NCBI GenBank assembly: GCA_044228445.1
Contig: JBGAUV010000001.1
Span: forward strand, 316,495 to 371,444
Direction: 5' to 3'
Source: Minisyncoccia bacterium
Lineage (GTDB): Bacteria; Patescibacteriota; Minisyncoccia; Phycocordibacterales; PALSA-1337
Length of the DNA: 54,950 bases
Below the pieces are notes generated by a model. That model was not told the origin of the DNA. It saw nothing but the letters and a program-made list of their open reading frames with translations, and did not search any database. Shown piece by piece: positions 7,151-54,729 of the stretch. A program made the position numbers and the translations under genes. Numbering within the stretch: position 1 is the first letter of the stretch; each line of letters begins with the position of its first letter.

Positions 7151-7220
7151 TTACTAAATTATACCTCGAATATCCATAAAAACTCTTGGGGAAAAACTAT
7201 CAGTAATAGAGTATGTGGGC

Positions 7221-7248
7221 TTGACAAAATCCTATTTTATGATAGGGT
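7221..7248 (+). promoter_or_regulatory. Putative promoter of cassette A
   Basis: TTGACA 7221-7226, 16-nt spacer, TGa-TAGGGT 7240-7248; AGGAGG Shine-Dalgarno at 7341-7346. Confidence 0.35.
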
Positions 7249-7355
7249 GCCTATAAATGGCTCTTTGTAATTGGATTATGTGTTGTTCCCGTGTGGGAAC
7301 TTTACGATTTATTTCGACATATAAGAAAGTATAGAGAGCTAGGAGGAATAAAGAC

Positions 7356-8351
7356 ATGAAAAATCTGTTCAAGTCGGTTTGGATGGCCATCTTTGTGATG
7401 GTTGTCGGTATGGTCTTCACCCACGGGCAAGCGCCAGTGGTGACCGAAAACGGCAATGCCGCGGTCACTGCGGATGGTTCAGCAGCTTCGAGGACTCTCA
7501 GTCCCACGGAAGCTGCTGAAGTCTTCAGTAGTCGACGTCATGCCCGGCTCCTTGCCGAGGGTGATGGAATCACCGTGAAGGTTTACGCCTCTGTGGGACC
7601 CCGAAAGGATGCCCCAGAATACGCAGAGTTTGCGGGAAGTTTTCTTCTCGCAGCTTTCAATGACGTTTATCCGACAGGTGAACCCTCCAAGGTTAAGTTT
7701 CTCAGTCTCGGACGAAAGTTCGAGCCCGGAAATCTTATGGGTGGATGGACGATTTGGTTTGCTACGGTAATAGAAAGGGCTGGAAAGCCCTTCATGCCGA
7801 CAAACCTGACATCGCAGATCTCATCTTCCGCTAGCGATATCTTCGGGAAGATTGAACTTTACAATAACCCCGAGAATGTCTATGGAATGACGTCGCGTGG
7901 TCAAGTCACTGACCAGAACGGCATCAAGACCCTCATTACTGGGGGAAGGTGGTCCGAGAGTCTGGTCACAAAGTTCGCTTTTCTCGGAACAGCGAACAAG
8001 ACGATGAATGACCCGACTCAATCAATCTACGACAATAACGTAAGGTGGATGATGGGATTTCCGAACTTTATCCTTGATTGCAAGTGGGCAATCAAGGAGA
8101 ATGGTGTCATCGCTGGTATTGGTGGTATCACCCTCGAAACGAGACCCTTTATCCCCGAACCACCGACCCTCGTCATTACGAGGGATGGAAACGGGATCAA
8201 GGTTTCGTCCCCAGATCTGCCCACGAGCATTTCAGCAGACGTTCTCCAGTCTCCCAACTGGAGTGTCGTGGGTACCATCACTGGTACCCAGGCCCTCGCC
8301 ATTCCGGCAGGGCAATCCATGCAGCTCTTCCGTCTCCGGGTCAACAATTGA
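7356..8351 (+). CDS. Secreted hypothetical protein (GC-rich cassette A)
   Basis: 331-aa ORF, AGGAGG 9 nt upstream, N-terminal signal peptide (MKNLFKSVWMAIFVMVVGMVFTHGQA). 35/60 GC at 7441-7500 versus about 27% in the backbone. Confidence 0.7.
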   Translation: MKNLFKSVWMAIFVMVVGMVFTHGQAPVVTENGNAAVTADGSAASRTLSPTEAAEVFSSRRHARLLAEGDGITVKVYASVGPRKDAPEYAEFAGSFLLAAFNDVYPTGEPSKVKFLSLGRKFEPGNLMGGWTIWFATVIERAGKPFMPTNLTSQISSSASDIFGKIELYNNPENVYGMTSRGQVTDQNGIKTLITGGRWSESLVTKFAFLGTANKTMNDPTQSIYDNNVRWMMGFPNFILDCKWAIKENGVIAGIGGITLETRPFIPEPPTLVITRDGNGIKVSSPDLPTSISADVLQSPNWSVVGTITGTQALAIPAGQSMQLFRLRVNN

Positions 8352-8370
8352 CCCGCTCTTCCAGAGACCA

Positions 8371-8416
8371 ACAGCAGCCAGTTTCAAACCCAAAAGGGTG
8401 AGAGACTGGCTGTTTT
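8371..8416 (+). terminator. Putative intrinsic terminator of cassette A
   Basis: CAGCCAGT (8375-8382) pairs with ACTGGCTG (8405-8412), followed by TTTT; the loop is large (22 nt). Confidence 0.45.
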
Positions 8417-8563
8417 CTTATTTAAATATAATATTTAGTGAAATTTCAAAAAACACCAAAACTCGGAAATATGACCCTTATAAGAGGGAGACCCCTTGAC
8501 TTTTTATCGATTATCGTGTATACATATAGGGTTATTATTAGACAATAATTAACGAATAAATCA

Positions 8564-9481
8564 ATGATAAACAAAATAAATAAAACATTTGCTGTTGCCC
8601 TAGCTATAATGCTATTGGCTCCAGTATTTGCTTTCGCTGAACCTACAGTAACTGATGCGGGTAATGCCGGAACTTCAGCTCCAGCTGTTTCAGATGCAGG
8701 TAATGCAGCTGTTTCAACACCTTCAGTAACTGATCAAGGTAATGCTTCAGTAACTACAAGTTCAAATACACCCTCAGTAACTGATCAGGGTAATGCAGCT
8801 GTTTCAACAAATGCAAATACTCCTTCAGTAACAGATCAAGGAAATGCTGCTACTATTTCTTCAAGTAATACAAATACAGGAGGAAGTACAGGTGGTAGTA
8901 CAGGTGGTTCAACAGGTGGTGGATCAAGTGCAAACAATGTAGGAAGCGGTTCTGGTTTTTCTACAGGTGGTTCAATACTTGTAAGTAACCTTTCAAAATC
9001 AGGTACATGTGCATATCTAACAGACTACATTAAATTCGGAGGAAACAATTCAGTTTCTGAGGTTACAAAACTTCAAACATTCCTAAAGACTGTTGAAGGA
9101 CTAAATGTAGACATAAACGGTAAGTACGATGAAAAAACTGTAAATGCAGTTAAGGCTTTCCAAACAAAGTATGTAAACGATACTATGGTTCCTTGGGGAG
9201 TTAATACTCCATCAGGAGAAGTTTATTTCACAACAAAGAATAAAATTAATGAAATTTATTGTAAAACAAAGATTTCATTAACTGATTCTCAAAAGTCTGA
9301 AATAGCTAAGTACAAACTATCACTAGCAACAAAAACTGAATCTTCAAATACAAATTCAGATAATGCTAGCACAACAGTAGGTACAACTAATGGAAGTTCA
9401 ACTGACCAAACAGCTACAGTTTCAAACTCTTCATTCGCTTCACGTTTTTGGAACTTTATAAAGAGACTATTTGGTAGATAA
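8564..9481 (+). CDS. Secreted repeat protein with peptidoglycan-binding (PG_binding_1-like) domain
   Basis: Signal peptide, five or more P(S/A)V(T/S)D(Q/A)GNA(A)V repeats, a GGST run, then VTKLQTFLK...NGKYDEKTVNAVKAFQTKY typical of PG-binding domain 1. Confidence 0.7.
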   Translation: MINKINKTFAVALAIMLLAPVFAFAEPTVTDAGNAGTSAPAVSDAGNAAVSTPSVTDQGNASVTTSSNTPSVTDQGNAAVSTNANTPSVTDQGNAATISSSNTNTGGSTGGSTGGSTGGGSSANNVGSGSGFSTGGSILVSNLSKSGTCAYLTDYIKFGGNNSVSEVTKLQTFLKTVEGLNVDINGKYDEKTVNAVKAFQTKYVNDTMVPWGVNTPSGEVYFTTKNKINEIYCKTKISLTDSQKSEIAKYKLSLATKTESSNTNSDNASTTVGTTNGSSTDQTATVSNSSFASRFWNFIKRLFGR

Positions 9482-9501
9482 TTATTGTCTATCTCTCTTA
9501 C

Positions 9502-9527
9502 AAAAACCGCCCTTAAGGGCGGTTTTT
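9502..9527. terminator. Bidirectional intrinsic terminator
   Basis: AAAAA-CCGCCC-TTAA-GGGCGG-TTTTT between convergent genes 8564..9481 and tsaD. Confidence 0.8.
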
Positions 9528-9528
9528 G

Positions 9529-10614
9529 CTATTCATCTAGTCTCATATTTCCTTTAGCTTTTATTTCTCTATCTTTATATTGTTTATATCTAAGTGATCC
9601 TGCCAAAGCAATCATAAGAGCATTATCACCAGTTAAACCTGATACAGGAATATATAGTTCAATATTGTATTCATTAGCAATATTTATAAAAGCATTTCTA
9701 ATATTTTCATTTGCAATAACTCCTCCTCCTATTATTAAAGAATTATAACTTTCAGTATCAAGAGCCTTTTTTGTCTTTTCGATAAGGACTTCTGTAACTG
9801 AATCTTCAAATTCTCTACAAAGTTCTTGTTTAAATTCTTCACTAATATCATTTTTATCTTTAAGTAAATATAAAATTGAAGTTTTAAGTCCAGCAAAGGA
9901 GAAATCAAGATCTTTTGAATTAATCATTGGTCTAGGTAAACTAAAAGTCTTAGGTAGATTTTTTTCTCGAGCAAAATTTGCCAATTCTGATATTTTTGGT
10001 CCACCTGGATAAGATAGATTTAACATTCTAGCAACTTTATCAAAAGCTTCACCTATAGCATCATCTCTAGTTTCGCCTAGTATTTTGTATTTACCAAGTT
10101 CTATTATTTTAATAAGTTCAGTATGACCTCCACTTATAAGTAGGGAAAGGCTAGGAAATTTTATTTCCTTTAATTCAATAAAATCATCATTTGTATTGCT
10201 ATTTTTTAATAAACTAGAAACAATATGACCTTCCATATGATTTATTGGAATAATAGGAATGTTGTATTTTGCACTCAATTCTTTTGCAAAAACTATACCA
10301 GTCCACAATGCAGGTTCAAGTCCTGGACCTTCAGTAACTGCAATAAGGTCTATGTTTTCAATTTTAAACTTTGTATCGTTTATAATTTTCTCAAATAAAA
10401 TAGGTAAATTCTTTATATGTTCTCTTTTTGCCAGGGCAGGGTATACACCACCGTATTCTTTATGTATTTCAATTTGAGAATTGGTACTATGTGCTAGTAC
10501 TTTATACTTTAATTTATTATTGCCATGTTCATCTATTTGTAATAGGCAAAGTGATGTTTCATCGCAACTTGTTTCGATTCCTAGTATTGTCATTATATTG
10601 CCTATTATATGCAT
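9529..10614 (-). CDS. tsaD: tRNA N6-adenosine threonylcarbamoyltransferase TsaD (Kae1/Gcp)
   Basis: GIETSCDETS N-terminal motif, HMEGH metal site, overall Gcp/Kae1 architecture (361 aa). Confidence 0.95.
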   Translation of the reverse strand: MHIIGNIMTILGIETSCDETSLCLLQIDEHGNNKLKYKVLAHSTNSQIEIHKEYGGVYPALAKREHIKNLPILFEKIINDTKFKIENIDLIAVTEGPGLEPALWTGIVFAKELSAKYNIPIIPINHMEGHIVSSLLKNSNTNDDFIELKEIKFPSLSLLISGGHTELIKIIELGKYKILGETRDDAIGEAFDKVARMLNLSYPGGPKISELANFAREKNLPKTFSLPRPMINSKDLDFSFAGLKTSILYLLKDKNDISEEFKQELCREFEDSVTEVLIEKTKKALDTESYNSLIIGGGVIANENIRNAFINIANEYNIELYIPVSGLTGDNALMIALAGSLRYKQYKDREIKAKGNMRLDE

Positions 10615-10635
10615 ATTTTGGTATTTAAACAGGGA

Positions 10636-10664
10636 TTGACATTATGACTATTATATGATAGTAT
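10636..10664 (+). promoter_or_regulatory. Putative promoter of orphan mini-cassette F
   Basis: TTGACA 10636-10641, 17-nt spacer, TGa-TAGTAT ending at 10664. Confidence 0.4.
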
Positions 10665-10788
10665 TATCACATAAGGGTTTTTTGAAAGATTTCATTTTAT
10701 ATGAGTAAATACATGTTCGAGTGAATATGTATTATACATATGAGAGTCGCGGTAATCGACTATAAAAGACCACATAATAGGAGGTGTT

Positions 10789-10875
10789 ATGTACATCATG
10801 ATTGATGGTGACCTTACACAGGTCACTTTGACTGAGTATCGCGAGATTATCGCGGCTCGTCGGAATGGGAATTAA
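10789..10875 (+). CDS. Candidate 28-codon small ORF (MYIMIDGDLTQVTLTEYREIIAARRNGN)
   Basis: AGGAGG at 10779-10784, 4 nt before the ATG; TAA at 10873-10875; locally GC-enriched (29/60 at 10801-10860). Too short for the ORF track. Confidence 0.3.
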   Translation: MYIMIDGDLTQVTLTEYREIIAARRNGN

Positions 10876-10943
10876 TCCTGTTCTAATCTGTACACAAAGG
10901 TGTACGGCCTATAACTCTAGGTGGCAACAGAAAGAGTTAAATC

Positions 10944-10978
10944 GACCCTGAGACTTGAAAAAGTTAAAGGGTCTTTTT
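10944..10978 (+). terminator. Putative terminator of mini-cassette F
   Basis: GACCCT (10944-10949) pairs with AGGGTC (10968-10973), followed by TTTTT. Confidence 0.45.
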
Positions 10979-11004
10979 GTTTGGTTAAAATAATAAATAA
11001 CATG

Positions 11005-11077
11005 TGCGCGATACAGGACTTGAACCTGTGACCCTCCCCACGTCAAGGGGATGCTCTACCAACTGAGCTAACCGCGC
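11005..11077 (-). tRNA. tRNA-Val: tRNA-Val (anticodon GAC)
   Basis: Reverse complement folds as GCGCGGT/ATCGCGC acceptor, GCTC-AGTTGGTA-GAGC D arm, TTGACGT anticodon loop, ACAGG-TTCAAGT-CCTGT T arm. Confidence 0.95.
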
Positions 11078-11126
11078 ATATTTTAAATTTTAATTTTACT
11101 ATACTATTTGCAATAAACGTCACCAG

Positions 11127-11150
11127 CCACCAAGACAGCTAATGCGCATA
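11127..11150 (-). repeat. Degenerate copy of the tRNA-Val 5' end, 70 nt upstream of the gene
   Basis: Minus strand TATGCGCATTAGCTGTCTTGGTGG versus the real TATGCGCGGTTAGCTCAGTTGGTAG. Confidence 0.6.
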
Positions 11151-11168
11151 CTTTTAAAAATTTTAAAT

Positions 11169-11804
11169 TTAAATAAACTTTAATACCAACCCACCCATTA
11201 TAACAATACCAAGTAATAATACTATTACACCAAGAAATCTATTTATTGTAGAAAAATGTTCTTCTTTTATAAGATGTCCAAATACATTAGCTATAAAAGT
11301 TAACAGTAACCACCATAGACAAGCGCCAACAATAACTCCAAATAATATATTTATACCAAAATAATTACCGTTATTTACTAGTCTCGGACTTATTCCAGCA
11401 AATATTAAAAAGAATGCCCCGGCTGTAATAGGGTTTGTAATAACTATTGCTAAAGAAGAAAAGAAATATTCAATATATGTAATTGCAGTATCTGGTTTTT
11501 TTGATATTACTTTTTGTTTTGAAATAACCATTGATGTCCCCATAAAGATCAATATAAGACCACCAAGAACTCTTAATATGGTTTGATTATCGATTATAAA
11601 GTCAGATATAGATTTTATTCCAAATATTCCTACAGAAGCCATAAAAGCATCACCAACAACAGCACCAAGTCCTGTAATTAAACCAGCTAGTATTCTTTTT
11701 GATATGGTCCTTTGAATACAAATAAAGCCAACAGGTCCAATGGGGACAGAGGTAGAAAAACCAACAACCACACCCCACATAAAAGCAATGATATGATGAA
11801 TCAT
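11169..11804 (-). CDS. LysE/RhtB-family amino-acid exporter
   Basis: 211 aa, about six TM helices. N-terminal VPIGPVGFICIQRT... and GLGAVVGDAF motifs are typical of LysE translocators. Confidence 0.75.
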   Translation of the reverse strand: MIHHIIAFMWGVVVGFSTSVPIGPVGFICIQRTISKRILAGLITGLGAVVGDAFMASVGIFGIKSISDFIIDNQTILRVLGGLILIFMGTSMVISKQKVISKKPDTAITYIEYFFSSLAIVITNPITAGAFFLIFAGISPRLVNNGNYFGINILFGVIVGACLWWLLLTFIANVFGHLIKEEHFSTINRFLGVIVLLLGIVIMGGLVLKFI

Positions 11805-11946
11805 ACGTGGGTATAATTATAACATTTTAAATTTTTTAGGGTATTATTTTTAAGAATACTTTATGTCAATTAATTTAAGTAGTGTGTATAATACCAACAT
11901 TTATTGCCATTTTTATAAAAAATGGTAATATGAAAAAGCTCCATTT

Positions 11947-12018
11947 GGCCCTATCGTCTATCGGCTAGGACATCGCCTTTTCAAGGCGGTAAGCAGGGTT
12001 CGATTCCCTGTAGGGTCA
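11947..12018 (+). tRNA. tRNA-Glu: tRNA-Glu (anticodon TTC)
   Basis: Acceptor GGCCCTA/TAGGGTC, anticodon stem-loop TCGCC-TTTTCAA-GGCGG, T arm CAGGG-TTCGATT-CCCTG. Confidence 0.9.
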
Positions 12019-12030
12019 CCTCGATAAAAT

Positions 12031-36320: not shown

Positions 36321-36347
36321 AAAGGGCGGACTTGTGGTCCGCCCTTT
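36321..36347. terminator. GC-rich intrinsic terminator at the 3' end of cassette B
   Basis: AAA-GGGCGGAC-TTGTG-GTCCGCCC-TTT. Confidence 0.75.
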
Positions 36348-36368: not shown

Positions 36369-36743
36369 CTATCTCACTTGTTTCCGTACAAGGAAACTCA
36401 TGTCTTTGGGTGACATCACCCAGACATTTGTGACACCATTTCCCCAATCAATCTTTCGACCATTTGGGTGCATGGTGATCGAGTTGGTGAAGTCACCAAT
36501 TGTGACCACTTTGGCAAACCAAGTGACATTTTCGCCCGAAGGCTTAATATCAAATGGTCCTCCAAAGGGATCGATCTCGATCCCATACCACTTCCCAGCT
36601 GAAGCTAGGAAGTTGGTGGTGAAGGTGGAGTGTTCTGTTACTCCTCCCTCCTTTTCCTCTTTACTCGATGAGGAGAGGTGGAATATTAGGTATATTCCTA
36701 GACCGATAATGAGACCGACAATTGCAAAGGATTTGGCTTTCAT
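36369..36743 (-). CDS. Small membrane-anchored hypothetical protein (cassette B, translationally coupled to the SPFH gene)
   Basis: 124 aa with an N-terminal TM helix. AGGAGG lies 9 nt upstream, inside the SPFH gene; ATGA start/stop overlap at 36740-36743. Confidence 0.65.
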   Translation of the reverse strand: MKAKSFAIVGLIIGLGIYLIFHLSSSSKEEKEGGVTEHSTFTTNFLASAGKWYGIEIDPFGGPFDIKPSGENVTWFAKVVTIGDFTNSITMHPNGRKIDWGNGVTNVWVMSPKDMSFLVRKQVR

Positions 36744-37816
36744 ACAACCCCGCCTCCTTTCTTACTTGCCTTTGCGTTCGTATCAGCATCAACGACCGTC
36801 ACTCCTCCATTGTTTTTAATGACTTGATATCTACCGTCATTGACGGCGGTCTCTTCGATTAGCTGAGCTCGAACCTTGGCAAAGAGCTCAACAAAGGACA
36901 TACCAGTTATGAGTTTTATATCACCAACCGGCTTGCCGTCAGTATCAAAGGTGATACCCATAGCTTTAATTCTTTCTCGAACTCTCTGATTCATGGTCTC
37001 TGCATCAGCAAGCTGTGTTGCTCGCTGAGCTTCCTCAATTGCTTTGCCGTTTCTAGCATCGCGCACCGCTTGAGGAGCGACGAGTGAGATAGAAAGTTTC
37101 CGAACATCTACTCCGAGATCAGAAAGAGTTACGGTGTCTTCAGAATCATTGTGTCTAGGTACACCCCTTTCAAGGATTTCTCTGACGCTTCTACTGACCT
37201 CGTCCGGGTTAGTCTCCATATACTTGGAGTCTTTCCCGGCAGCAATTGTTTTAAGGGACTGAATGACAGATCCTTTAATAATCTCCATTACCCCTTTCTT
37301 TTGTCCTGCTTTAACATAAGAAAGAACTTTTTCACCAGCAGTTCTTTCTTTGTCATCCTTTAGGTCGACAATGAAGCCGATCGTGACTCTCCCTCCGATT
37401 GTCACATCGTCTGAACAACGAATCTCCTGAGGAACATCAACTGTCTCCTCAAAATTTACGACTTCAATTTCGATAACTTCCACGATATCAAACCAATGAA
37501 GGTCTAGAATCATCGTGAGACCTTCGCTGATTGAGGTCGTAGGATTTCCGAAAAACGTGAGGAGGAAGATATTCTTCTTCTCATCCTTTGATGACGGAGT
37601 TTTAATACCTGCAAGCATCACCACCCCTGCAACGAAGGGGATGATACCGAAGAAGAAGTGACCCCGCATAAGAGTCACCAAACCGACAATGATGAGTATT
37701 CCAGTCACACACATCAATGTGCGACTGTATTCCTCATTCATTTTGTAGCAGAGCAATCCTGCTGCTACTAATACTACTGCAGGTAGCAGTAGTATTAATG
37801 TCCTGATTTCATCCAT
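36740..37816 (-). CDS. SPFH/Band-7 (stomatin/flotillin-like) domain membrane protein (cassette B)
   Basis: Three N-terminal TM helices, a beta-rich core, then DLGVDVRKLSISLVAPQAVRDARNGKAIEEAQRATQLADAET, typical of the SPFH C-terminal helix region. Confidence 0.65.
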   Translation of the reverse strand: MDEIRTLILLLPAVVLVAAGLLCYKMNEEYSRTLMCVTGILIIVGLVTLMRGHFFFGIIPFVAGVVMLAGIKTPSSKDEKKNIFLLTFFGNPTTSISEGLTMILDLHWFDIVEVIEIEVVNFEETVDVPQEIRCSDDVTIGGRVTIGFIVDLKDDKERTAGEKVLSYVKAGQKKGVMEIIKGSVIQSLKTIAAGKDSKYMETNPDEVSRSVREILERGVPRHNDSEDTVTLSDLGVDVRKLSISLVAPQAVRDARNGKAIEEAQRATQLADAETMNQRVRERIKAMGITFDTDGKPVGDIKLITGMSFVELFAKVRAQLIEETAVNDGRYQVIKNNGGVTVVDADTNAKASKKGGGVV

Positions 37817-37896: not shown

Positions 37897-37924
37897 ATTA
37901 TACATGAAAATACGGTATTGTCAA
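37897..37924 (-). promoter_or_regulatory. Consensus sigma70-type promoter for the SPFH mini-operon
   Basis: Minus strand TTGACA (37924-37919), 16-nt spacer, TATAAT (37902-37897). Confidence 0.6.
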
Positions 37925-38020: not shown

Positions 38021-38524
38021 CTAGGGTTTTTTCTTGACTGTAAACTTCACAGTCAATTCAGGACCAAGAGATCTTATCCTGATACCAGTAACTTTCTCGC
38101 TACTGGTGGGTTCAACCCAAATCGGGCTGTTTGTAGTGCCTACGTTATAGGCAGCAAGGTATTCGTGATATACACGACCATTGACCCACACCGTTGCGTG
38201 TATATCGGCAGTAGTCTTTTCAAAGACAATATCTTCGTATGGGCCGACTTTGTGTTGGGTGACTGAACCGACTTCAGATGATCCCAACATATTGGTAACA
38301 AGTGTTGGGATCGACCCGGTCCAGCGCATCCCTGAAAAATCAATCCTCGCTCCGTTTCCGAGATTAATCTCGGAGACGTTCATGTTTCCACCATTTACAA
38401 AAACGGTCATAGACCCACTTTGTCCGCCAGAGAGTCCGATTACACCATTTTTTGAGTTTGTATTTGGACCAGTAAAATCATTTGGTCCTTCATTATTTTT
38501 TTTTACTGATGCATCTGTTAACAT
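38021..38524 (-). CDS. Hypothetical protein (cassette B); possibly the C-terminal part of a gene split at an A9 run
   Basis: 167-aa GC-rich ORF with no signal peptide and no Shine-Dalgarno. Overlaps 38493..39038 by 32 nt in the +1 frame. Confidence 0.55.
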   Translation of the reverse strand: MLTDASVKKNNEGPNDFTGPNTNSKNGVIGLSGGQSGSMTVFVNGGNMNVSEINLGNGARIDFSGMRWTGSIPTLVTNMLGSSEVGSVTQHKVGPYEDIVFEKTTADIHATVWVNGRVYHEYLAAYNVGTTNSPIWVEPTSSEKVTGIRIRSLGPELTVKFTVKKKP

Positions 38525-39038
38525 TTACAGTCATGGAACCATTTGCATTTGGTCCGACTGCCGACAGTTTGGCCTGGTCCTGACCTTGCGAGATTGCAAG
38601 GGGAGGTGCTGTTGCTGGTGTTGAAGTGGTGCTGGCTTTATTAGCACCATCTCCTAATGCCAGATTCTCTGCCAGCTTTTTCCATTTCTGTATTTCTTTA
38701 TCCTTTTCATTGATTAACCCCGAATGCTCTGACCTAAGGTTACCATTTATCACCCCAAGTTTTGTTATCTCACTTTCGAGACTCTTCATTCTGTTGTTGT
38801 AAACAAAGTACCCGATAACAAGGATAACAACAATGAGAATTGACTCCAAGATGATGATAATCGTCTTGGTATTTTTGTACCACTTTTCGACCACCGGTCT
38901 TTCGGGAGTTTGAGGATTGACGAGAGCAGCGGGACTTTGTGCGGGGGCGGGACTTTGTGCGGGGGCGGGACTTTGTGCGGGGGCGGGACTTTGTGCGGGG
39001 GCGGGACTTTGTGCGGGGGCGGAATCTTGTGCGTTCAT
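38493..39038 (-). CDS. Single-pass membrane protein with an N-terminal (SPAPAQ)n repeat and a coiled coil (cassette B)
   Basis: 181 aa: repeat, TM helix (TIIIILESILIVVILVIGYFVY), heptad-like KSLESEITKLG...KEIQKWKKLAENL. The stop follows AAA AAA AAA directly. Confidence 0.6.
   Translation of the reverse strand: MNAQDSAPAQSPAPAQSPAPAQSPAPAQSPAPAQSPAALVNPQTPERPVVEKWYKNTKTIIIILESILIVVILVIGYFVYNNRMKSLESEITKLGVINGNLRSEHSGLINEKDKEIQKWKKLAENLALGDGANKASTTSTPATAPPLAISQGQDQAKLSAVGPNANGSMTVNVNRCISKKK
38931..39020. repeat. Five perfect tandem copies of an 18-bp unit (GGGACTTTGTGCGGGGGC)
   Basis: Units start at 38931, 38949, 38967, 38985 and 39003. A degenerate sixth copy lies at 39021-39033. In frame, encoding SPAPAQ on the minus strand. 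Confidence 0.95.
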
Positions 39039-39115: not shown

Positions 39116-39144
39116 ATAATAGCATTGTATTTGACATATGTCAA
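39116..39144 (-). promoter_or_regulatory. Promoter of 38493..39038, with its -35 inside a 14-bp palindrome
   Basis: Minus strand TTGACA (39144-39139), 17-nt spacer, TGc-TATTAT (-10 at 39121-39116). TTGACATATGTCAA spans 39131-39144. Confidence 0.5.
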
Positions 39145-45333: not shown

Positions 45334-45362
45334 AAAAGCCCCCGGTTTCCCGAGGGGCTTTG
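45332..45362. terminator. GC-rich bidirectional terminator (desulfurase / cassette C)
   Basis: AAAAAA-GCCCCCGG-TTTC-CCGAGGGGC-TTT. Confidence 0.75.
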
Positions 45363-45386
45363 TGAAATTACCATCGCTTTTATTTG

Positions 45387-46358
45387 TTAGCGCTTTGTGA
45401 AGAAAACCACATAGCTTTCTTCCTCAAGGAAACCTGAATTGTCTTCCTTGTCGAAGACCAAAACGCCTTCAGTTTCCAACTCTTCCGTCTTTTCAAATTT
45501 CAGACGGTTTAGAGTGGTTGAACCTAGGGAAACATCCGGAACATCCAGGGAGACATCCTTGAACTCGAAGAACTGGTGTTCCTTGTGTTCACTGAAAGCC
45601 TTACAAGTGAATATGGTCGAGTCTTCCGGTCTCTCAACAAGACCTTTTTTATTGGTCAGGATTTTTTTGAGATCCTTGACACTCACCCTCCGGTTTACTC
45701 TGATAACCCGGAGTTTGTATGACCATTCCGAGATTGCTACCGACGAGAGTTCTGACGTAATATACAGTCTCACGTCCTCCGCGATTCGTGGCCAAGCGAC
45801 GTCCATGAAACTGCAGACGATTTCCCATTCTCGACATTCTCCTGCTTCATACGCTGGCCGGTTTTCCTTCAGCCACTTTTTAAGTGACCTCATCGTATCA
45901 ATGTCGCCAATGTAATAGTCAGATCGGTGATGATTGTCATTACCGTTCACAATGCGCAAGGCTTCATATAGAGGATCAAGTCTGGATTTAATACCTGTTG
46001 AGATCTCTCTTATATAAACCCATAGATATTTCACCAACATTAATTGCGCTATTACGATCAGTAATGCTACTACTAGCAATGTAATTGTTGTTGGCGTCTT
46101 TTCTACTCGATAAATTTCATGCGAAAAAAATACTAGTAATGATACAGATGTTATTACGGCAATAATGTGCACAATAAACATTGCGCATTGATCAAACATG
46201 GCATTCCAGTGCCAAGCTAAACCACCGATCCTGTACTCCAGGGAATTCCCGATCCTTCCACTGTACACCAACCTCGGGAACTTCCCGAAGAAGATTGAGA
46301 GTACCACCATTTTGAACCACCTAATAAAGTGGTCCAAGTGTTTGCTTACAATGTTCAT
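45387..46358 (-). CDS. Two-TM hypothetical protein with a roughly 200-aa soluble C-terminal domain (GC-rich cassette C)
   Basis: 323-aa ORF; GGAGAT Shine-Dalgarno 6 nt upstream. Hydrophobic helices FIVHIIAVITSVSLLVFF and ITLLVVALLIVIAQLMLV. 31/60 GC at 45781-45840. Confidence 0.65.
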   Translation of the reverse strand: MNIVSKHLDHFIRWFKMVVLSIFFGKFPRLVYSGRIGNSLEYRIGGLAWHWNAMFDQCAMFIVHIIAVITSVSLLVFFSHEIYRVEKTPTTITLLVVALLIVIAQLMLVKYLWVYIREISTGIKSRLDPLYEALRIVNGNDNHHRSDYYIGDIDTMRSLKKWLKENRPAYEAGECREWEIVCSFMDVAWPRIAEDVRLYITSELSSVAISEWSYKLRVIRVNRRVSVKDLKKILTNKKGLVERPEDSTIFTCKAFSEHKEHQFFEFKDVSLDVPDVSLGSTTLNRLKFEKTEELETEGVLVFDKEDNSGFLEEESYVVFFTKR

Positions 46359-49397: not shown

Positions 49398-49937
49398 ATG
49401 AATAAAAACATACAAAGTGCTGTTTTTGCTGGAGGGTGCTTTTGGTGTACAGAAGCTGTCTTTCAAGATTTAAAGGGCGTAATAAGTGTAATGCCTGGTT
49501 ACACAGGAGGAAGTATGGATAATCCGACCTATGAGAGGGTGTCAGGTGGAAATACAGGTCATGCTGAAGCGATAAAGATAGATTTTGATCAAGATATAAT
49601 AAGTTTCGATGATCTATTGTCAGTGTTCTTTAATACTCATGATCCAACAACTTTAAATAGACAGGGTAATGATGTCGGAACACAATATAGATCAGCTATT
49701 TTTTATACAAATGAAGAACAAAAGATAAAGTCAGAAAATATAATAAAAGAATTGAATGATAGTCATGCTTATGATAAGCCTGTAGTAACTGAAGTAAAAA
49801 AGTTTGAAAAATTCTTTGAAGCAGAGGATTATCATAAAAACTATTATAAAAATAATAAAGAGGCGGGATATTGTCAGATTATAATTGCTCCAAAACTAGA
49901 AAAATTACAAAAAAGATTTAATAATTTAATTAAATAA
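49398..49937 (+). CDS. msrA: Peptide-methionine (S)-S-oxide reductase MsrA
   Basis: GGCFWCTEAVF active-site motif; 179 aa. Confidence 0.93.
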   Translation: MNKNIQSAVFAGGCFWCTEAVFQDLKGVISVMPGYTGGSMDNPTYERVSGGNTGHAEAIKIDFDQDIISFDDLLSVFFNTHDPTTLNRQGNDVGTQYRSAIFYTNEEQKIKSENIIKELNDSHAYDKPVVTEVKKFEKFFEAEDYHKNYYKNNKEAGYCQIIIAPKLEKLQKRFNNLIK

Positions 49938-49938
49938 T

Positions 49939-50334
49939 ATGGATATAAATGAAAATGAGTTAAAGAAGAGACTAACTCCAGAGGAATATAAAGTTCTAAG
50001 AGAAAAAGCTACAGAAATGCCATTTTCTGGAAAACTTTTACATGAGAAGAGAAGTGGAATGTATAAATGTAAAGTTTGTGGAAATGATTTATTTAAATCA
50101 GATGCAAAGTTTGATTCTGGTACTGGTTGGCCAAGCTTTGATGAAGCTATTCCTGGAGCAGTAAAGCAAATACTTGATAATAGTCATGGTATGCAAAGAG
50201 TAGAAATAGTATGTAGTAAATGTAATTCACATTTAGGACATGTTTTTGATGATGGTCCTACAAAGACTGGAAAAAGATATTGTTTAAATTCAGTTTGTCT
50301 TGATCTTGAACCAATACAAGGTGATAAAAAATAG
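49939..50334 (+). CDS. msrB: Peptide-methionine (R)-S-oxide reductase MsrB
   Basis: Two CxxC zinc motifs (CKVCGN, CSKCNSHLGHVF) and GTGWPSF. Confidence 0.93.
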   Translation: MDINENELKKRLTPEEYKVLREKATEMPFSGKLLHEKRSGMYKCKVCGNDLFKSDAKFDSGTGWPSFDEAIPGAVKQILDNSHGMQRVEIVCSKCNSHLGHVFDDGPTKTGKRYCLNSVCLDLEPIQGDKK

Positions 50335-50335
50335 A

Positions 50336-51490
50336 TTAATCTATTACAACTCTCTTTAAATGACTTGCAATGTTTACAGCTAGATCTCTTGCTAGTGTTG
50401 TTTCTTTTGAAATATTTAACATAGAGTTTGGGTCACTTTCTTTATTACTTATTACTATTACTTTATCTCCAATTTTTACATCTTTTATATCTGTTATATC
50501 TATTGTTGTAATATTCATACTTACTCTACCTATAATATTTGCGATTTTTTCGTGTATGATAACATGACCCTTATTTGATAATCTACGATCTATACCTTCA
50601 TAATAACCAACTGGTATTGTTGCAATTACCATATCATTTTTTGCTTCAAAACTATTACCATAACCAACGGTCTGGCCTTTTTTAATCTTTTTTATACCTG
50701 TAACTATAGTCTCTAGTTGTAGTACGGGAATTATATGAACATTATCTACATAAGCACCATCACGAATACCATAAAGTCCTGCTCCCAAACGTGTCATATT
50801 GCATTTTGCTTTATTTATATAATTATGACCTGCGGTATTGCTAATATGCCAGTACTTTATTGTATTAAATTCTGATTTAAAAATATCTACAAGTTTATTC
50901 CATTCAATTATCTGTTTTTCAGTATAGTCTTTATTTTCTTCTGCATCAGAGAAATGTGAAGAAATACTTTCAAGTATTATGTTTTTATTTTCTTTTATTA
51001 TTTTAATACCCTGTTCTATATCACTTGAAAGTATACCTTGTCTATGCATACCTGTATCTAGTTTTAAATTTATTTTAGTCTTTTTATTTAATTTTTCACT
51101 AAGTTCTTTTAAAACAGTAATATCAGATACAGTGAAAATAACATCTTTAATTCTATTATTAATTATATTTTTTACTGTTGTATAACCTATTACCATAATA
51201 GCTCTTTTTATATCATCATTACGAAGTTTTTTTGCTTCAAAATATGAGTCTAGTATAAAAAAGGGAACCCTGCTTGGTGAAGTATATGTATCCAGTATTT
51301 CTGCAATTTCATTTAATCCATGACCATAAGCATTGCTTTTCAAAACTGGAGAGATCATTACTCCATTACCTATTTTTATAAATTCATTTATATTATTTAA
51401 CAATGCAAATTTGGATAGGGTTACGGTTACCATGTTTTCATCGTCCTTAATAAAATATTTTTTATAGAGTTGTTTTATTATTCTTCGCAT
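50336..51490 (-). CDS. alr: Alanine racemase
   Basis: PLP-lysine motif VLKSNAYGHGL and C-terminal GRVSMN motif. Confidence 0.85.
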   Translation of the reverse strand: MRRIIKQLYKKYFIKDDENMVTVTLSKFALLNNINEFIKIGNGVMISPVLKSNAYGHGLNEIAEILDTYTSPSRVPFFILDSYFEAKKLRNDDIKRAIMVIGYTTVKNIINNRIKDVIFTVSDITVLKELSEKLNKKTKINLKLDTGMHRQGILSSDIEQGIKIIKENKNIILESISSHFSDAEENKDYTEKQIIEWNKLVDIFKSEFNTIKYWHISNTAGHNYINKAKCNMTRLGAGLYGIRDGAYVDNVHIIPVLQLETIVTGIKKIKKGQTVGYGNSFEAKNDMVIATIPVGYYEGIDRRLSNKGHVIIHEKIANIIGRVSMNITTIDITDIKDVKIGDKVIVISNKESDPNSMLNISKETTLARDLAVNIASHLKRVVID

Positions 51491-51529
51491 TTATTTATTA
51501 ATTTTATAATACATTCTCTTTTATTTACC

Positions 51530-51558
51530 TTGATATAGATATGATTTTATGGTATAGA
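51530..51558 (+). promoter_or_regulatory. Putative promoter of cassette D
   Basis: TTGATA 51530-51535, 17-nt spacer, TGg-TATAGA ending at 51558. Overlaps the short direct repeat GATTTTATGG (51543-51552 and 51558-51567). Confidence 0.4.
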
Positions 51559-51690
51559 TTTTATGGATAGAAAGCCAAACTATAGTAATAAAAGTGATTT
51601 ATGTGCACCGCAAGTGCTTGGATAAGTCCAATATGCATATTTCATGGGCCGCAAGCACTATTGCTAAATTGGCAAACATTGAAAGGAAGT

Positions 51691-52590
51691 ATGAAAATCA
51701 ATTACGAGTATGGTGTGTCTGACGAAATGCTCAATAACTGGATTTTTGGGAAAAGATTGAGAGATCGAGAAAAAATGAATATGAAGATTTCAAACATCAT
51801 ATGTGATGTTTTGTTGTCTGCTTTGGTCATATTTTCATTGTTTTCTCTTTATCTAATTAAGAATGGTTATGAGAAAATGGTAATTTATCCATTTTCTGGT
51901 GTGATTATAATTGCAGGATTGTCTGCATTCTGTATTAGGCTTCTTAACTGGAATACTTATAAAGCCCTAAAAAAGGGAATACGAGATGATTTGGAATTCC
52001 TCGATATTTTTTGTGGGGAAAGTATTTCAGAAGAAAAAATCAAAAATTCGAATTTCGATACAGTAAGATTGGCAGTAATAAGTCACTTGAGGATGCATAT
52101 GACCACAGCTGTAGTGGATCATAATGAGAAATCTAAGGAAAATATTCTAAAGGCACTCTCGATTGCGAGACTATTCTTTGGGTGGATTGGGGAGAGTGAA
52201 ATTTTCTCATTTCATCAATTATCTTGGAATGATAATGGTAGTGGTACCGTTGTTTGTGATGGCAAAAAATACTCATACGAAATGTATAGTGTTGATCACC
52301 CTGTTGACGTTAAAGATATTTACAGGTTCGCAACCTATGATCCAAATAATTGTACTCTTTTGGGTCAAAGAGGTTTTACTTGGGTTAGACCACCTATTGG
52401 TAATAATAGAGGAGATATGTTTTGCTTCTCTCAAGCATTTACCGATGATGGTATAAATCGGTACACAATTCATACTAGGAATCGTATTACTGGGTCAACA
52501 GAAACAATAACCTCAATACCTGAAGCAGAATTCGATCAAAGTTTTTTCCGTGGAAAGATTTTGGTTGTTTTCAAGAGAATTGAAGTCTAA
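51691..52590 (+). CDS. Two-TM hypothetical protein with a roughly 190-aa soluble C-terminal domain (cassette D)
   Basis: ATG 51691 follows AAGGAAG. Helices VLLSALVIFSLFSLYLI and FSGVIIIAGLSAFCIRLL. The track start at 51601 has no ribosome-binding site. Confidence 0.55.
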   Translation: MKINYEYGVSDEMLNNWIFGKRLRDREKMNMKISNIICDVLLSALVIFSLFSLYLIKNGYEKMVIYPFSGVIIIAGLSAFCIRLLNWNTYKALKKGIRDDLEFLDIFCGESISEEKIKNSNFDTVRLAVISHLRMHMTTAVVDHNEKSKENILKALSIARLFFGWIGESEIFSFHQLSWNDNGSGTVVCDGKKYSYEMYSVDHPVDVKDIYRFATYDPNNCTLLGQRGFTWVRPPIGNNRGDMFCFSQAFTDDGINRYTIHTRNRITGSTETITSIPEAEFDQSFFRGKILVVFKRIEV

Positions 52591-52606
52591 CCCCTTTCTA
52601 TTTTTC

Positions 52607-52637
52607 AAAAGCCCTTTGCGTTCGCGCAAGGGGTTTT
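52607..52637 (+). terminator. GC-rich intrinsic terminator of cassette D
   Basis: GCCCTTTGCG-TTCG-CGCAAGGGGT followed by TTTT. Confidence 0.75.
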
Positions 52638-52674
52638 GTGTTTTTACTTAAAATATACAAATAAAATATAAAGA

Positions 52675-52700
52675 AAAGGCGCGACCGAAATCGCACCTTT
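52675..52700 (-). terminator. Intrinsic terminator of 52721..52999
   Basis: Minus strand AAAGGTGCGA-TTTCGG-TCGCGCCTTTT (one mismatch in the stem). Confidence 0.6.
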
Positions 52701-52720
52701 AGCTTGAATCCCACAGCATA

Positions 52721-52999
52721 TCACTCCTTGTTAGTGGGTTTGGAACTCAGCATATACTGAATTCTGATCTGAACGAGACGATTCAGTTCGTTAGTACGAA
52801 CATGATTCGTCTCCACCTTGCAACTCCCACATGCCTCAGCCTTAGCTGGGGCGGGGAGCCCATACTCCAACGAATTAACTTCTGAGGAGTACTCCTTGGT
52901 CAAGTACGCAACATATATGAGGGATGCAAACCCCACACAAATGAAGGTGCCCAAGACAATTTTGATTTTGTCTTTCACTCTTCCTTTCCTTTTGCTCAA
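52721..52999 (-). CDS. Small single-pass membrane protein (cassette E)
   Basis: 92 aa, TTG start, basic N-terminus, TM helix IVLGTFICVGFASLIYVAYL. TNHVRTN motif shared with 54340..54573. Confidence 0.5.
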   Translation of the reverse strand: MSKRKGRVKDKIKIVLGTFICVGFASLIYVAYLTKEYSSEVNSLEYGLPAPAKAEACGSCKVETNHVRTNELNRLVQIRIQYMLSSKPTNKE

Positions 53000-53148
53000 C
53001 TCAAATACCTACCGCATGGTAAGTTTCAAATTGAGAAGAGCATCCACTGAAATATTATAATATATAGATAAATGTGTCAACACCTGTGTAATTGTTCAAA
53101 TATTTAATAAAAATGAGTGTTGGATTAAATATAAAAATATATAAAGAA

Positions 53149-53172
53149 AGACGCGGCCATTAGGTCGCGTCT
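53149..53172 (-). terminator. GC-rich intrinsic terminator of 53194..54315
   Basis: AGACGCGGCC-ATTA-GGTCGCGTCT, flanked by A/T runs, 21 nt after the stop codon. Confidence 0.75.
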
Positions 53173-53193
53173 CTTTGTTCCAGCTACTGAAGT

Positions 53194-54315
53194 TCAGTAG
53201 ACTGGATTTTCCGTAGCACCCTTGCCGGGGTTGGGGTTGTCTGCAGGTGATTGAACCCACGGTGGCCAGACCGTAATAATCTGGTATTCACCTGGATCAA
53301 GACTGATCTCATACCCAGAGGGAACTTCACGATCTGTTTGAGTTCCTTTATCATCAAGGGAGTGGATCAGTACCTTCGTTGGGTACACCATCATGTCTGA
53401 GTTCCCCCAGACGCCAGCACCGAGTCGCTTATGGCTAATGGTGATCCCTTTCTTAACCGTGAGGTCAAGAAGGGGAAAATTACCGTAAACTGTTTCATTG
53501 TCCACATAGAACTTCCTATCGTGAACAAGTGTGTCGGTAAGCGATATAACAACGCCACCCTCAAGCTTTCCAAGATTCGTAAAGATATTGCGACCCTGGA
53601 AAAATTGCCCGGTAGACAAATTCCAAGATGAGAGGTGTTTTCCGTTATGAAGAAGAATATTCCTTGTTGCTCCAGCCATATCGGAGGAAAGAAAGACAAG
53701 TGAATGCCCCTCCTTTCCTTGCTGAACGTCGATTTCAACATCATTCGGCCAACCAACGAGCTTTGCGCTCGTATTGTCACCCACATCCACCAGCACATTT
53801 GCCGGTAAATACATCCATGTTTGGAACGGATCGGCGACAAGATCGCCACCCTTTCCTTCGTGGATGTTTGACCAACCTGATCCTTCGAGGATGACTTGGT
53901 TGGCTGAGTTGTAAACCGTGATATACGTGGTAACGAAATAGTAATCGTTACCAGTGTAGTCAGTCGGTTGAGGGACTACCTCAGCTGACATACCGACGTG
54001 CCGGAGGGCATCCGACAGCTGGGTAAATGACCCAGCAATATTGTAACCGTTTTGAGTCAGCCACTTTCGGTCCAAGTTGATTGGACCTAAGTCTTGGAAC
54101 AAACTCTTTCCCGAAAACGAGATCGACACATGGTCGATCTGTTGCAGGAGAAATTGTGTAACCTTCTGGTTGCCTTGAGCATAGACCTCGATCGGAACGA
54201 TCGGGGGTCCACCAACAGGCGGGTGATCTCCCGGTTCAGGTGTTGCCTGAACAGTGATGTTGAACCAAACCATGATCATTCCGATGATCATAGCGACGAG
54301 CTTGTTGTTCTTCAT
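53194..54315 (-). CDS. Secreted hypothetical protein (cassette E)
   Basis: 373 aa; AGAGGA Shine-Dalgarno 5 nt upstream; signal peptide MKNNKLVAMIIGMIMVWFNITVQA. 30/60 GC at 53701-53760. Confidence 0.7.
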   Translation of the reverse strand: MKNNKLVAMIIGMIMVWFNITVQATPEPGDHPPVGGPPIVPIEVYAQGNQKVTQFLLQQIDHVSISFSGKSLFQDLGPINLDRKWLTQNGYNIAGSFTQLSDALRHVGMSAEVVPQPTDYTGNDYYFVTTYITVYNSANQVILEGSGWSNIHEGKGGDLVADPFQTWMYLPANVLVDVGDNTSAKLVGWPNDVEIDVQQGKEGHSLVFLSSDMAGATRNILLHNGKHLSSWNLSTGQFFQGRNIFTNLGKLEGGVVISLTDTLVHDRKFYVDNETVYGNFPLLDLTVKKGITISHKRLGAGVWGNSDMMVYPTKVLIHSLDDKGTQTDREVPSGYEISLDPGEYQIITVWPPWVQSPADNPNPGKGATENPVY

Positions 54316-54339
54316 TTTTTCCTCTCTTATCTGCGTTGT

Positions 54340-54573
54340 TTACTGTTGTTTTTTGAACCCCCCGAACTTCGGGGAAATTGTGAATGTGACAGTCCGGTTT
54401 GTCCGAACGTTGTTTGTAGGAAGCTCAACATGAGCCCCCAACTCACTCTTAGTAGAGTCAGAATTGGATTCCGTAGGAAGGCCATTAGGGCTTTTCCTGT
54501 TCTTTGCCACAATTAGAAGGGAAATAATCACCCCAATAATGAGAGTGAAAAGACTGTATTTTAGGACTTTCAT
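54340..54573 (-). CDS. Small single-pass membrane protein (cassette E, first gene)
   Basis: 77 aa with TM helix YSLFTLIIGVIISLLIV and a TNNVRTN motif. Lies 24 nt upstream of 53194..54315. Confidence 0.5.
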   Translation of the reverse strand: MKVLKYSLFTLIIGVIISLLIVAKNRKSPNGLPTESNSDSTKSELGAHVELPTNNVRTNRTVTFTISPKFGGFKKQQ

Positions 54574-54646
54574 TTTTTTTATGAGAGTTTAGCTCAATAT
54601 AAACACAAGCCACACGGCAAGTTCTATTTAAAAGAGCTTTTGTAAA

Positions 54647-54675
54647 ACACTATCATATTTGTAGGGATATGTCAA
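54647..54675 (-). promoter_or_regulatory. Putative promoter of cassette E
   Basis: Minus strand TTGACA (54675-54670), 17-nt spacer, TGa-TAGTGT (-10 at 54652-54647). Confidence 0.45.
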
Positions 54676-54729
54676 TGCTTTGCTTTTAATTAAATATAGG
54701 TTATAGTACACAAGCATTTATATACATTT

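Follow-up and report, generated by a model that had tools for sequence, protein, structure and literature searches.

Small GC-rich loci of predicted envelope proteins, probably resident and hypervariable, in an AT-rich Paceibacteria lineage

Replacement-type flexible genomic islands are hypervariable surface loci, e.g., O-antigen/O-chain clusters and cell-wall islands (PMC11898729, PMC4535781; Lopez-Perez et al. 2014, cited there). Their GC offset is stable across clades but downward (PMC11898729). Here, we describe six GC-rich segments (A to F) in 54,950 nucleotides of an AT-rich Minisyncoccia bacterium genome (GenBank assembly GCA_044228445.1, contig JBGAUV010000001.1, positions 316,495 to 371,444, forward strand; this whole stretch is called the window). 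Segments A to E carry short protein-coding genes, referred to as cassettes, and F is of another kind. The cassettes are probably small, resident, replacement-type hypervariable loci for envelope proteins in a genus-level Paceibacteria lineage, a reading that takes in an inferred cause of their GC-richness.

Like flexible islands, the loci hold fixed positions between conserved genes, occur as deeply divergent versions in near-identical genomes, would be exchanged by homologous recombination in their flanks with no need of mobility genes, keep a stable GC offset, and have predicted cell-envelope functions. Unlike those islands, which are 20- to 60-kb clusters of differing gene sets with glycan-synthesis enzymes as products, they comprise 1 to 4 genes (0.3 to 2.7 kb) at several loci within 55 kb; their versions are recognizably homologous alleles, their products are orphan proteins, and their offset is upward (about +15 to 20 GC points, up to +0.45 at third codon positions). 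Mosaic, segmentally recombined genes for predicted surface proteins are also known from Borrelia vlsE (PMC3585125, PMC11499132), from which the present loci differ in having no silent cassette array in the window, in varying between strains only, and in belonging to an environmental bacterium of the Candidate Phyla Radiation (CPR) without an adaptive-immune host. Horizontal gene transfer islands of Patescibacteria (PMC12455944) have atypical composition and recurrent membrane-related proteins in common with the cassettes, but here position and composition are conserved through the clade, with no amelioration, integrase, tRNA-linked att site, or direct repeat. The hypothesis of GC-biased gene conversion (PMC4450053) also has loci with a recombination footprint that are rich in GC at third codon positions (GC3), the effect being strongest there and involving nonoptimal codons. 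The effect in the cassettes is far above the modest genome-wide differences associated with biased gene conversion in bacteria, and it does not scale simply with divergence across the loci. Finally, integron cassettes are likewise short, mostly single-gene units of atypical composition encoding orphan proteins, but the units here are dispersed rather than arrayed, have no intI and no attC-like repeat, and each carries a promoter. Integron cassettes usually have no promoter of their own.

Sliding-window analysis placed backbone GC near 30%, with sharp rises at 7.2 to 8.5, 36.2 to 39.1, 45.3 to 46.5, and 52.5 to 54.6 kb. Without the segments, the GC content of the window is 0.309; 1-kb windows outside them average 0.310 ± 0.028 (maximum, 0.375), and by that distribution segments A (0.498), B (0.442), C (0.428), and E (0.453) stand 4 to 7 standard deviations out. 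Segment F has a GC content of 0.419, and D (0.354) lies just ~1.6 standard deviations out on total GC. All backbone genes have GC3 values within 0.11 to 0.25, against the cassette values in Table 1. Third positions of the cassettes are flat (A,.23; C,.26; G,.23; T,.28), in contrast to those of the backbone (A,.44; C,.07; G,.09; T,.40), and the effective number of codons (Nc) is 51 to 61 (45 in D) versus 32 to 39. The GC excess falls mostly within the transcribed unit, and the flanks return to 0.24 to 0.35 in ~100 bp. A reading of the window made earlier from the sequence alone (the sequence-only reading) had described this break in composition; windowed GC, GC3, and Nc all agree with it, with D as a weak outlier, and its seven hand counts of G+C in 60 bases (16, 35, 29, 34, 31, 19, 30) were exact on recount. 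The slot neighbors that it had named match Pfam labels (PrsW, PG_binding_1, TsaD, T4SS_pilin, Reprolysin, Aminotran_5, Ala_racemase, Ribosomal_L33), and the tRNA-Val was also found.

Assembly error is a trivial source of such breaks, and the source contig is metagenome derived. GC-rich DNA of another organism might have been joined to an AT-rich backbone, and a run of N lies inside the C ortholog of one relative (L012). Set against such a chimera, a Logan contig (run SRR28480390) is 100% identical to window positions 1 to 11051 and spans both A junctions, contig L002 spans C plus the junction with the desulfurase gene, and the same gene orders recur in >10 independent assemblies (JGI, ENA, NCBI, Logan) from different samples. 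The junctions, which had been marked for such a check, are not assembly artifacts, and the chance that the segments are chimeric is negligible.

For comparison, related Paceibacteria contigs from independent samples were used, designated by L-numbers (L003, L007, L009, L092, L172, L175, L177 to L180, etc.). The ClpB of the window is 81 to 82% identical to proteins of metagenome-assembled genomes (MAGs) labeled Candidatus Taylorbacteria, Parcubacteria, or Paceibacterota, which places the window in a Paceibacteria genome. Orthologs of A, B1/B2, C, D, and E2 occupy the same slots in every close relative recovered, and backbone GC3 is 0.11 to 0.24 in all compared loci. In the window and its relatives, A lies in the order PrsW, A, peptidoglycan (PG)-binding protein, TsaD, with GC3 values (amino acid identity to the window) of 0.59 in L003 (82%), 0.58 in L007 (61%), 0.65 in L009 (52%), and 0.66 in L180 (50%), compared with 0.58 in the window. 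B2 (window GC3, 0.42) follows the T4SS_pilin array in L179 (87%; GC3, 0.45) and L177 (48%; 0.44), with the same order in L178; B1 adjoins it as in the window (L179, 86%, GC3 0.57; L177, 33%, GC3 0.45). Between the desulfurase gene and clpB, L092 and L179 carry a C allele 41% identical in amino acids to that of the window (GC3, 0.41 and 0.42 versus 0.49). The full neighborhood of D and E is rpmG, E2, (E1), D, alr, msrB, msrA; E2 orthologs adjoin rpmG in L175 (74%; GC3, 0.49) and L172 (42%; 0.54; window, 0.52), and D orthologs lie between E2 and alr (L175, 37%, GC3 0.33; L172, 25%, GC3 0.31; window, 0.30).

These GC3 levels are held over long divergence. Synonymous sites are saturated, with a proportion of synonymous differences (pS) of 0.66 to 0.81 in cassettes and a backbone synonymous divergence (dS) of about 0.7 to 1.4. 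The ratio of nonsynonymous to synonymous divergence (dN/dS) of cassette genes is 0.08 to 0.25 overall (A, 0.17 to 0.20; B2 and B1, 0.08 to 0.11; D, 0.25; E2, 0.11 to 0.20); judged from these alignments, the cassette genes are real and under purifying selection. In a two-state decay model (inputs, a backbone equilibrium of 0.16 and the measured fraction of GC<>AT changes), a GC3 of 0.60 at the split of the window and L009 would have fallen to 0.23 to 0.33; 0.58 and 0.65 were observed. Third-position changes in A, polarized by parsimony with L007 as a saturated outgroup, numbered 28 GC>AT and 28 AT>GC. Cassette GC-richness is a stationary, gene-specific property and no fading trace of recent import.

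The sequence-only reading had taken the segments for recently acquired foreign expression cassettes with host-adapted promoters that had entered the gaps between core genes, and for a new class of dispersed element. Their atypical composition, self-contained units, and orphan-like products agree with this, as does gene flux nearby: a helicase gene present in L007, L009, and L180 and missing from the window and L003, an empty C slot in the more distant L015, and an L177 contig without the reprolysin gene. The claim fails because the orthologs in the clade agree in both position and composition, the very outcome that the reading had set against itself, and their synonymous sites are saturated. 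Moreover, the promoters belong to the conserved frame, the boundaries have no common repeats, no integrase or transposase was found in the ORFs scanned, and neither the 28:28 count nor the decay model indicates ongoing amelioration. Slots in close relatives are all occupied, rather than sporadic or empty as acquisition would have it; an empty C slot occurs in L015 alone, a distant relative. Recent foreign acquisition is highly improbable, and an ancient horizontal origin of the cassettes is possible.

The allele, not the presence of the cassette, changes between strains. In sliding profiles, troughs of identity match peaks of GC (Spearman rho, −0.48 and −0.47; p < 0.001), and promoter regions between units are conserved where coding regions are variable. 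Between L180 and L007, ~1.5 kb upstream and ~0.5 kb downstream of A are 99 to 100% identical at the DNA level, the A coding sequence (CDS) is 45 to 70% identical, and the breakpoints coincide with the CDS ends. The region upstream of the A CDS is 93 to 100% conserved in L003, as it is between L180 and L007. From the window to L003, A has a dS of 0.62 and a nonsynonymous divergence (dN) of 0.107, versus 0.03 to 0.34 and 0.003 to 0.02 in its neighbors. C is 41% identical in amino acids to its L092 counterpart where clpB DNA is 95% identical; DNA homology ends at 45367 and resumes at 46264, within the N-terminal coding region, so that the N-terminal 31 codons are conserved and the allele is replaced downstream. 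Against L172, E2 and D are 42% and 25% identical, with msrA, msrB, and ClpB at 94 to 96% and alr at 84% (msrA, msrB, and ClpB are 91 to 96% identical across L175 and L172). For E1 versus L175, the promoter region is 84 to 86% conserved and the CDS 57 to 67%.

Mosaicism in A was assessed from module-wise incongruent identities of 13 alleles, with DNA from five of them. The core falls into four classes (46 to 62% identity between classes), and the N- and C-terminal modules assort independently of it. Alleles P04 and P05 have 97% identical C-terminal modules around cores of 58% identity; P02 and P10 match at 96% (N-terminal) and 97% (C-terminal) but at 49% in the core; the window allele and P03 have the reverse (core, 96%; C-terminal module, 48%). 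This module pattern appears to result from homologous recombination that has repeatedly joined divergent alleles.

A mosaic, modular gene is also what programmed antigenic variation of the vlsE, pilE, or MgPa type would produce, with expression sites rewritten from silent copies elsewhere. Antigen loci driven by gene conversion in AT-rich genomes, among them Borrelia vls and the MgPa repeats of Mycoplasma genitalium, are GC-rich. In the present case, blastn and tblastx found no partial cassette copies in the 55-kb window, within a contig of at least 371 kb; variation lies between strains or samples, with none inside one assembly, and the cassette families are single copy wherever found. We regard programmed variation as very unlikely.

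Under the preferred reading, of resident replacement-type loci, each gene sits in a fixed slot whose frame consists of housekeeping genes and a conserved promoter and terminator, and whose CDS is hypervariable. Homologous recombination, with the conserved flanks as anchors, would exchange divergent alleles (for A, reshuffled N-terminal, core, and C-terminal modules) among strains and species. The driver would be frequency-dependent selection on exposed structures, such as those for host attachment, phage reception, or defense by the host.

Signal-like or transmembrane (TM) segments are present in A, B1, B2, B4, C, D, E0, E1, and E2, and the cassette products are predicted to be envelope or surface-exposed proteins. 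Searches of the cassette proteins against Pfam, PHROGs, and NCBIfam assigned none of them, B4 giving weak low-complexity matches only. B2 had been credited with a recognizable SPFH domain; no Pfam, NCBIfam, or PHROG match was obtained at E ≤ 0.01, and the likeness is architectural only. Against 50,697 phage records, tblastn with A, E2, B2, and C as queries gave no match, and neither did scans of IMG/VR with A and E2 alignments. The families are small and lineage restricted: among 5.8 billion, A has 14 clusters at 90% identity, B2 has 10, and E2 only 6. A profile search widens the A family to 41 clusters at 50% identity, all of ~280 to 370 amino acids with a signal peptide and a terminal F[FY]R[LT]-type motif; one remote relative, P0047, is annotated as "Patescibacteria group bacterium." Paralogy of A with E2 and of C with D was also considered and was not significant by BLASTP or hhalign (probability, 4%).

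What keeps the cassettes GC-rich is a separate question. Translational selection was rejected on the Nc of 51 to 61 and the flat use of third positions, the Nc making codon optimization unlikely. The likeliest cause would be recombination-associated, GC-biased fixation that offsets a strong mutation pressure toward AT; we hold it tentatively, as a possibility. It agrees with the recombination footprints described above and with the finding that recombining bacterial genes have higher GC3 (PMC4450053). In its stronger form, the surface loci would have a separate, stable composition equilibrium (GC3 of ~0.3 to 0.65 versus ~0.15) set by recombination-driven GC-biased fixation, which we consider somewhat doubtful.

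Alternatively, the loci may be resident and their GC content kept up by continuing import from a supraspecies Patescibacteria pool with GC-richer hosts, replacement outpacing amelioration. Modules common to alleles with deeply different cores (the 97% C-terminal module of P04 and P05) and allele swaps between contigs with identical flanks would follow from such import; remote Patescibacteria relatives of A are rich in A, S, P, and G residues, suggesting GC-richer genes, and the GC content of relatives in the ClpB set spans 31% to 64%. However, all five A contexts and all B2, C, D, and E2 contexts lie in AT-rich backbones (GC3, 0.11 to 0.24), and no close allele was found in a GC-rich genome. 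The tree order of A agrees with that of its flanks, B2 diverges at the flank rate yet keeps a GC3 of 0.44, and gene-specific GC3 levels are hard to square with a common pool. Maintenance by import is unlikely.

Selection at the DNA or RNA level, through mRNA stability versus AU-directed RNases, avoidance of spurious promoters and terminators, or escape from an AT-binding nucleoid protein, would explain why little of the GC excess lies outside the transcribed unit, why each gene holds its own GC3 across lineages, and why B2 keeps 0.44 at an ordinary substitution rate. It sits poorly with the almost flat codon usage, which (Nc, 51 to 61) shows no skew to a few codons, and with the raised synonymous divergence of A, C, D, and E2. 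We know of no mechanism of such selection for this clade and think it quite unlikely. A structured RNA as the source of the GC-rich segments was rejected, as tRNAs were the only Rfam matches and the long ORFs, with dN/dS far below 1, are conserved; of all segments, F alone looks RNA-like.

Several results weigh against resident hypervariable envelope loci with GC-biased fixation as their cause. Surface exposure is predicted from N-terminal hydrophobic segments only: AlphaFold2 models built on the A and E2 alignments are beta-rich with a predicted local distance difference test (pLDDT) score of 54, Foldseek searches of them against PDB gave only generic beta-sandwich matches (E > 0.01), and by a crude TM count GC-rich ORFs are not enriched over backbone ORFs (20/40 versus 160/332, or 50% versus 48%, in 170 loci). 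The earlier claim of membrane-anchored or secreted products agrees with a predicted signal or membrane segment in most of the proteins. Whole-gene dN/dS is below 1, and selection at the surface is an inference. Against L179, B1 and B2 are GC-rich yet diverge no faster than IF2; in a stretch with a GC-rich DEAD-box helicase gene that is ~93% identical overall between L180 and L007, no identity trough was resolved. GC3 does not track divergence across families, D being the most divergent and least GC-rich. These patterns of D, B1/B2, and the helicase are not predicted by a simple model of biased gene conversion at recombination hotspots, and the offset required (0.15 to 0.6) is far above any bacterial case known to us. 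The saturated outgroup behind the 28:28 count, and the restriction of the donor-copy search to 55 kb, belong on the same side.

Signals and mobility functions were examined in the window (Table 1). The host-like promoters that had been claimed for most units were in part recovered: strong sigma-70-like promoters were called directly upstream of B2, B4, E1, and F, the B2, B4, and E1 sites being the best in a 19-kb scan. Those of A, C, D, and E0/E2 were read only by eye, as TTGAYA...TGnTAGnGT, and were not called by the scan, in which promoter-like sites in total showed no excess over shuffles. Hairpin terminators, also described earlier, were called for B1/B2, C, D, and E1, and the A hairpin was read from the sequence; at cassette ends these are ordinary and mutually unrelated. 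No integrase, transposase, or reverse transcriptase was found by Pfam domain in the ORFs scanned, which did not cover every small ORF, and the cassettes carry no tRNA-linked att sites or direct repeats, with no repeats common to their borders. For integrons, cassette ends have no common sequence, and no integrase (intI) was seen in the ORFs scanned. The absence of mobility genes and attC-like sites, as first described, was borne out for those ORFs and for the cassette borders. For a diversity-generating retroelement, none of the cassette segments is repeated within the window, no reverse transcriptase domain was found in the ORFs scanned, and cassette variation covers whole genes, unlike the short C-terminal region of the targets of such elements.

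Table 1. Coordinates of the features (window positions unless a contig is named; GC3 where given; CDS, coding sequence; TM, transmembrane)
Feature	Coordinates	Strand	GC3	Description
A promoter, putative	7221-7248	+		TTGACA, 16 nt, TGn + TAGGGT; read from sequence, not called by scan
A CDS	7356-8351	+	0.58	331-aa predicted secreted beta-rich protein; GC 0.52
A hairpin, putative terminator	8375-8412	+		Inverted repeat CAGCCAGT...ACTGGCTG, then T run; by eye, not scan-called
F unit	10636-10973	+		Promoter, structured leader, 28-codon ORF, terminal hairpin
F promoter	10636-10664	+		TTGACA-17-TAGTAT with TG; scan-called
F leader	~10665-10788	+		
F ORF	10789-10875	+		
F terminal hairpin	10944-10973	+		
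F counterpart, L007	13319-13590			
F counterpart, L180	4746-4988			
F counterpart, L003	13378-13713			
B1/B2 operon terminator	36321-36347	-		11-bp stem, 7 GC pairs; scan-called
B1	36369-36743	-	0.50	124-aa membrane-anchored protein (predicted)
B2	36740-37816	-	0.42	358-aa protein, N-terminal hydrophobic helices
B2/B1 promoter	37897-37924	-		TTGACA-16-TATAAT, 12/12; top score in 19-kb scan
B4 + B3	38493-39038 + 38021-38524	-	0.44, 0.39	N-terminal SPAPAQ repeats, TM helix, coiled coil, C-terminal domain
B4/B3 promoter	39116-39144	-		TTGACA-17-TATTAT with TG; scan-called
B4/B3 counterpart, L177	5688-6368			One 226-aa ORF
B4/B3 counterpart, L179	8085-8847			Pair x147 + x102
C terminator	45339-45356	-		Scan-called
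C	45387-46358	-	0.49	323-aa two-TM protein
D	51601-52590	+	0.30	329-aa two-TM protein; weakest outlier, most divergent
D terminator	52608-52637	+		Convergent with that of E1; scan-called
E1 terminator	52700-52675	-		Convergent with that of D; scan-called
E1	52721-52999	-	0.55	92-aa membrane-anchored protein (predicted); own promoter TTGACA at 53080
E2	53194-54315	-	0.52	373-aa predicted secreted beta-rich protein
E0	54340-54573	-	0.47	77-aa membrane-anchored protein (predicted); heads E0-E2 unit
E0 promoter, putative	~54647-54675	-		TTGACA...TGaTAGTGT; read by eye
rpmG	54730-54885			Ribosomal protein L33, 51 codons
rpmG, L172	246-401		0.35	
rpmG, L175	149-304		0.35	
IS element, NYN, GrpB, L003	15238-16318			Downstream of LysE
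IS element, NYN, GrpB, L004	6055-7135			Downstream of LysE
Post-pilin GC-rich genes, L015	1792-2736			
Post-pilin GC-rich genes, L023	1843-3693			
Post-pilin GC-rich genes, L041	841-3035			
Post-pilin GC-rich genes, L045	1356-3048			
Post-pilin GC-rich genes, L057	1918-3030			
Post-pilin GC-rich genes, L063	1809-2966			
Post-pilin GC-rich genes, L089	2845-4241			
DEAD/Helicase_C gene, L007	13791-16235			
DEAD/Helicase_C gene, L009	14440-16890			
DEAD/Helicase_C gene, L180	5193-7634			
DEAD/Helicase_C gene, L029	12947-14869			
GC-rich gene beside alr, L015	13313-14473			386-aa protein, ends ...MDNGKG

In locus B, the B4 and B3 ORFs overlap by 32 nt, and B4 starts with five SPAPAQ repeats. L177 has a single ORF whose C terminus matches B3 at 29 to 31%. 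L179 is also split, into a differently composed pair with another N-terminal half, and its DNA identity to the B4 part is only 13 to 45%. B4 and B3 are probably one gene split by a frameshift; the overlap and the single L177 ORF agree with the suggestion that B3, which has no signal of its own, is a fragment of a split gene. In many of the more distant Paceibacteria, the slot after the T4SS-pilin array also holds GC-rich genes (GC3, 0.49 to 0.66) for membrane proteins that are unrelated or unrecognizably diverged between genomes (L015, L023, L041, L045, L057, L063, L089). This position seems to be a clade-wide hotspot.

Segment F differs in kind from the protein cassettes, being a conserved, structured leader RNA followed by a very small ORF. 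Its leader (~120 nt) is near invariant across lineages with backbone DNA ~81% identical, and a hairpin sequesters the ribosome-binding site of the small ORF. The RNA fold has a z score of −7.05 versus shuffles, and two base pairs of the leader are changed on both sides between lineages. The small ORF has a 22-codon homolog in L007 (MYYILPDGTVLTDNERKDIAGR). A search against Rfam gave no match, and F may represent a new structured RNA or leader. In L007, L009, and L180, F is followed by a GC-rich DEAD-box helicase gene that is absent from the window and L003. That F is a remnant of this helicase (L007, L009) was rejected, since the loci have only promoter and leader in common and the small ORF is itself conserved. 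DEAD/Helicase_C genes of 640 to 818 amino acids (GC3, 0.42 to 0.46), including one in L029, lie in AT-rich Paceibacteria backbones and are present or absent between close relatives.

Further observations concern individual loci. Just after the signal peptide, the N terminus of A (window 7420 to 7480) has a V(T/S)(D/E)xGNAAV motif that occurs about six times in the AT-rich PG-binding neighbor (8640 to 8900); similar motifs occur in remote members of the A family (VVIDDAGSAVV, IVDLGNSGKV). The motif may serve in surface anchoring or sorting and be specific to the clade. Downstream of LysE, a set of an insertion sequence (IS) element (rve integrase and HTH_Tnp_1), NYN, and GrpB is present in L004 and in the 93%-identical relative L003; the window is without it at that position. 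L012 is the GTDB representative of the same species or a sister species. Its C allele is of the L092 type and is broken by a run of N (~3803 to 4189) exactly inside the C ortholog, which suggests that strain heterogeneity at hypervariable C breaks assemblies. L012 had also been considered as an example of an empty C slot and was rejected, as the gene is present around the run of N.

The small membrane-anchored ORFs E0 and E1, on either side of E2, both have an N[NH]VRTN motif and may be paralogs; E0 is missing from the coordinates listed by the sequence-only reading. E2 homologs all end in D[ND]PNPG[KR]G (window 53194 to 53240). The GC-rich protein beside alr in L015 looks unrelated and ends in a somewhat similar way (Table 1), which may reflect very distant orthology or a C-terminal signal common to both; no distant homology was detectable between the L015 GC-rich genes in the same slots and B, D, or E. 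The ribosomal protein L33 encoded by rpmG is identical in the window, L172, and L175, and its GC3 in L172 and L175 exceeds the backbone range there, a hint that GC-ending codons are favored in some highly expressed genes as well; with 51 codons only, the rise may be noise.

CPR bacteria (Patescibacteria) are thought to live attached to host cells, and the proteins that make this contact are mostly unknown orphans. Composition by itself picks out some ten genes in the 55 kb of the window, and the comparison marks them as the fastest-diverging, recombining, strain-variable genes of the lineage. They are candidates for roles in attaching to the host, receiving phages, or evading host defense. For annotation, composition alone is insufficient for calling such islets horizontal transfers or MAG contamination: GC3 is kept despite saturation, so the equation of atypical composition with recent transfer and later amelioration is wrong here. 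Orthologs at GC3 values of 0.5 to 0.65 in a genome at ~0.15, despite saturation, make a clean natural test case in which some force must act, be it biased gene conversion, selection at the nucleotide level, or rapid turnover of alleles. If GC-biased fixation were the cause, this would be the most extreme bacterial biased gene conversion known to us. If the loci do have a separate GC equilibrium, it would provide a marker, readable from sequence alone, of host-interaction genes in uncultivated CPR bacteria.

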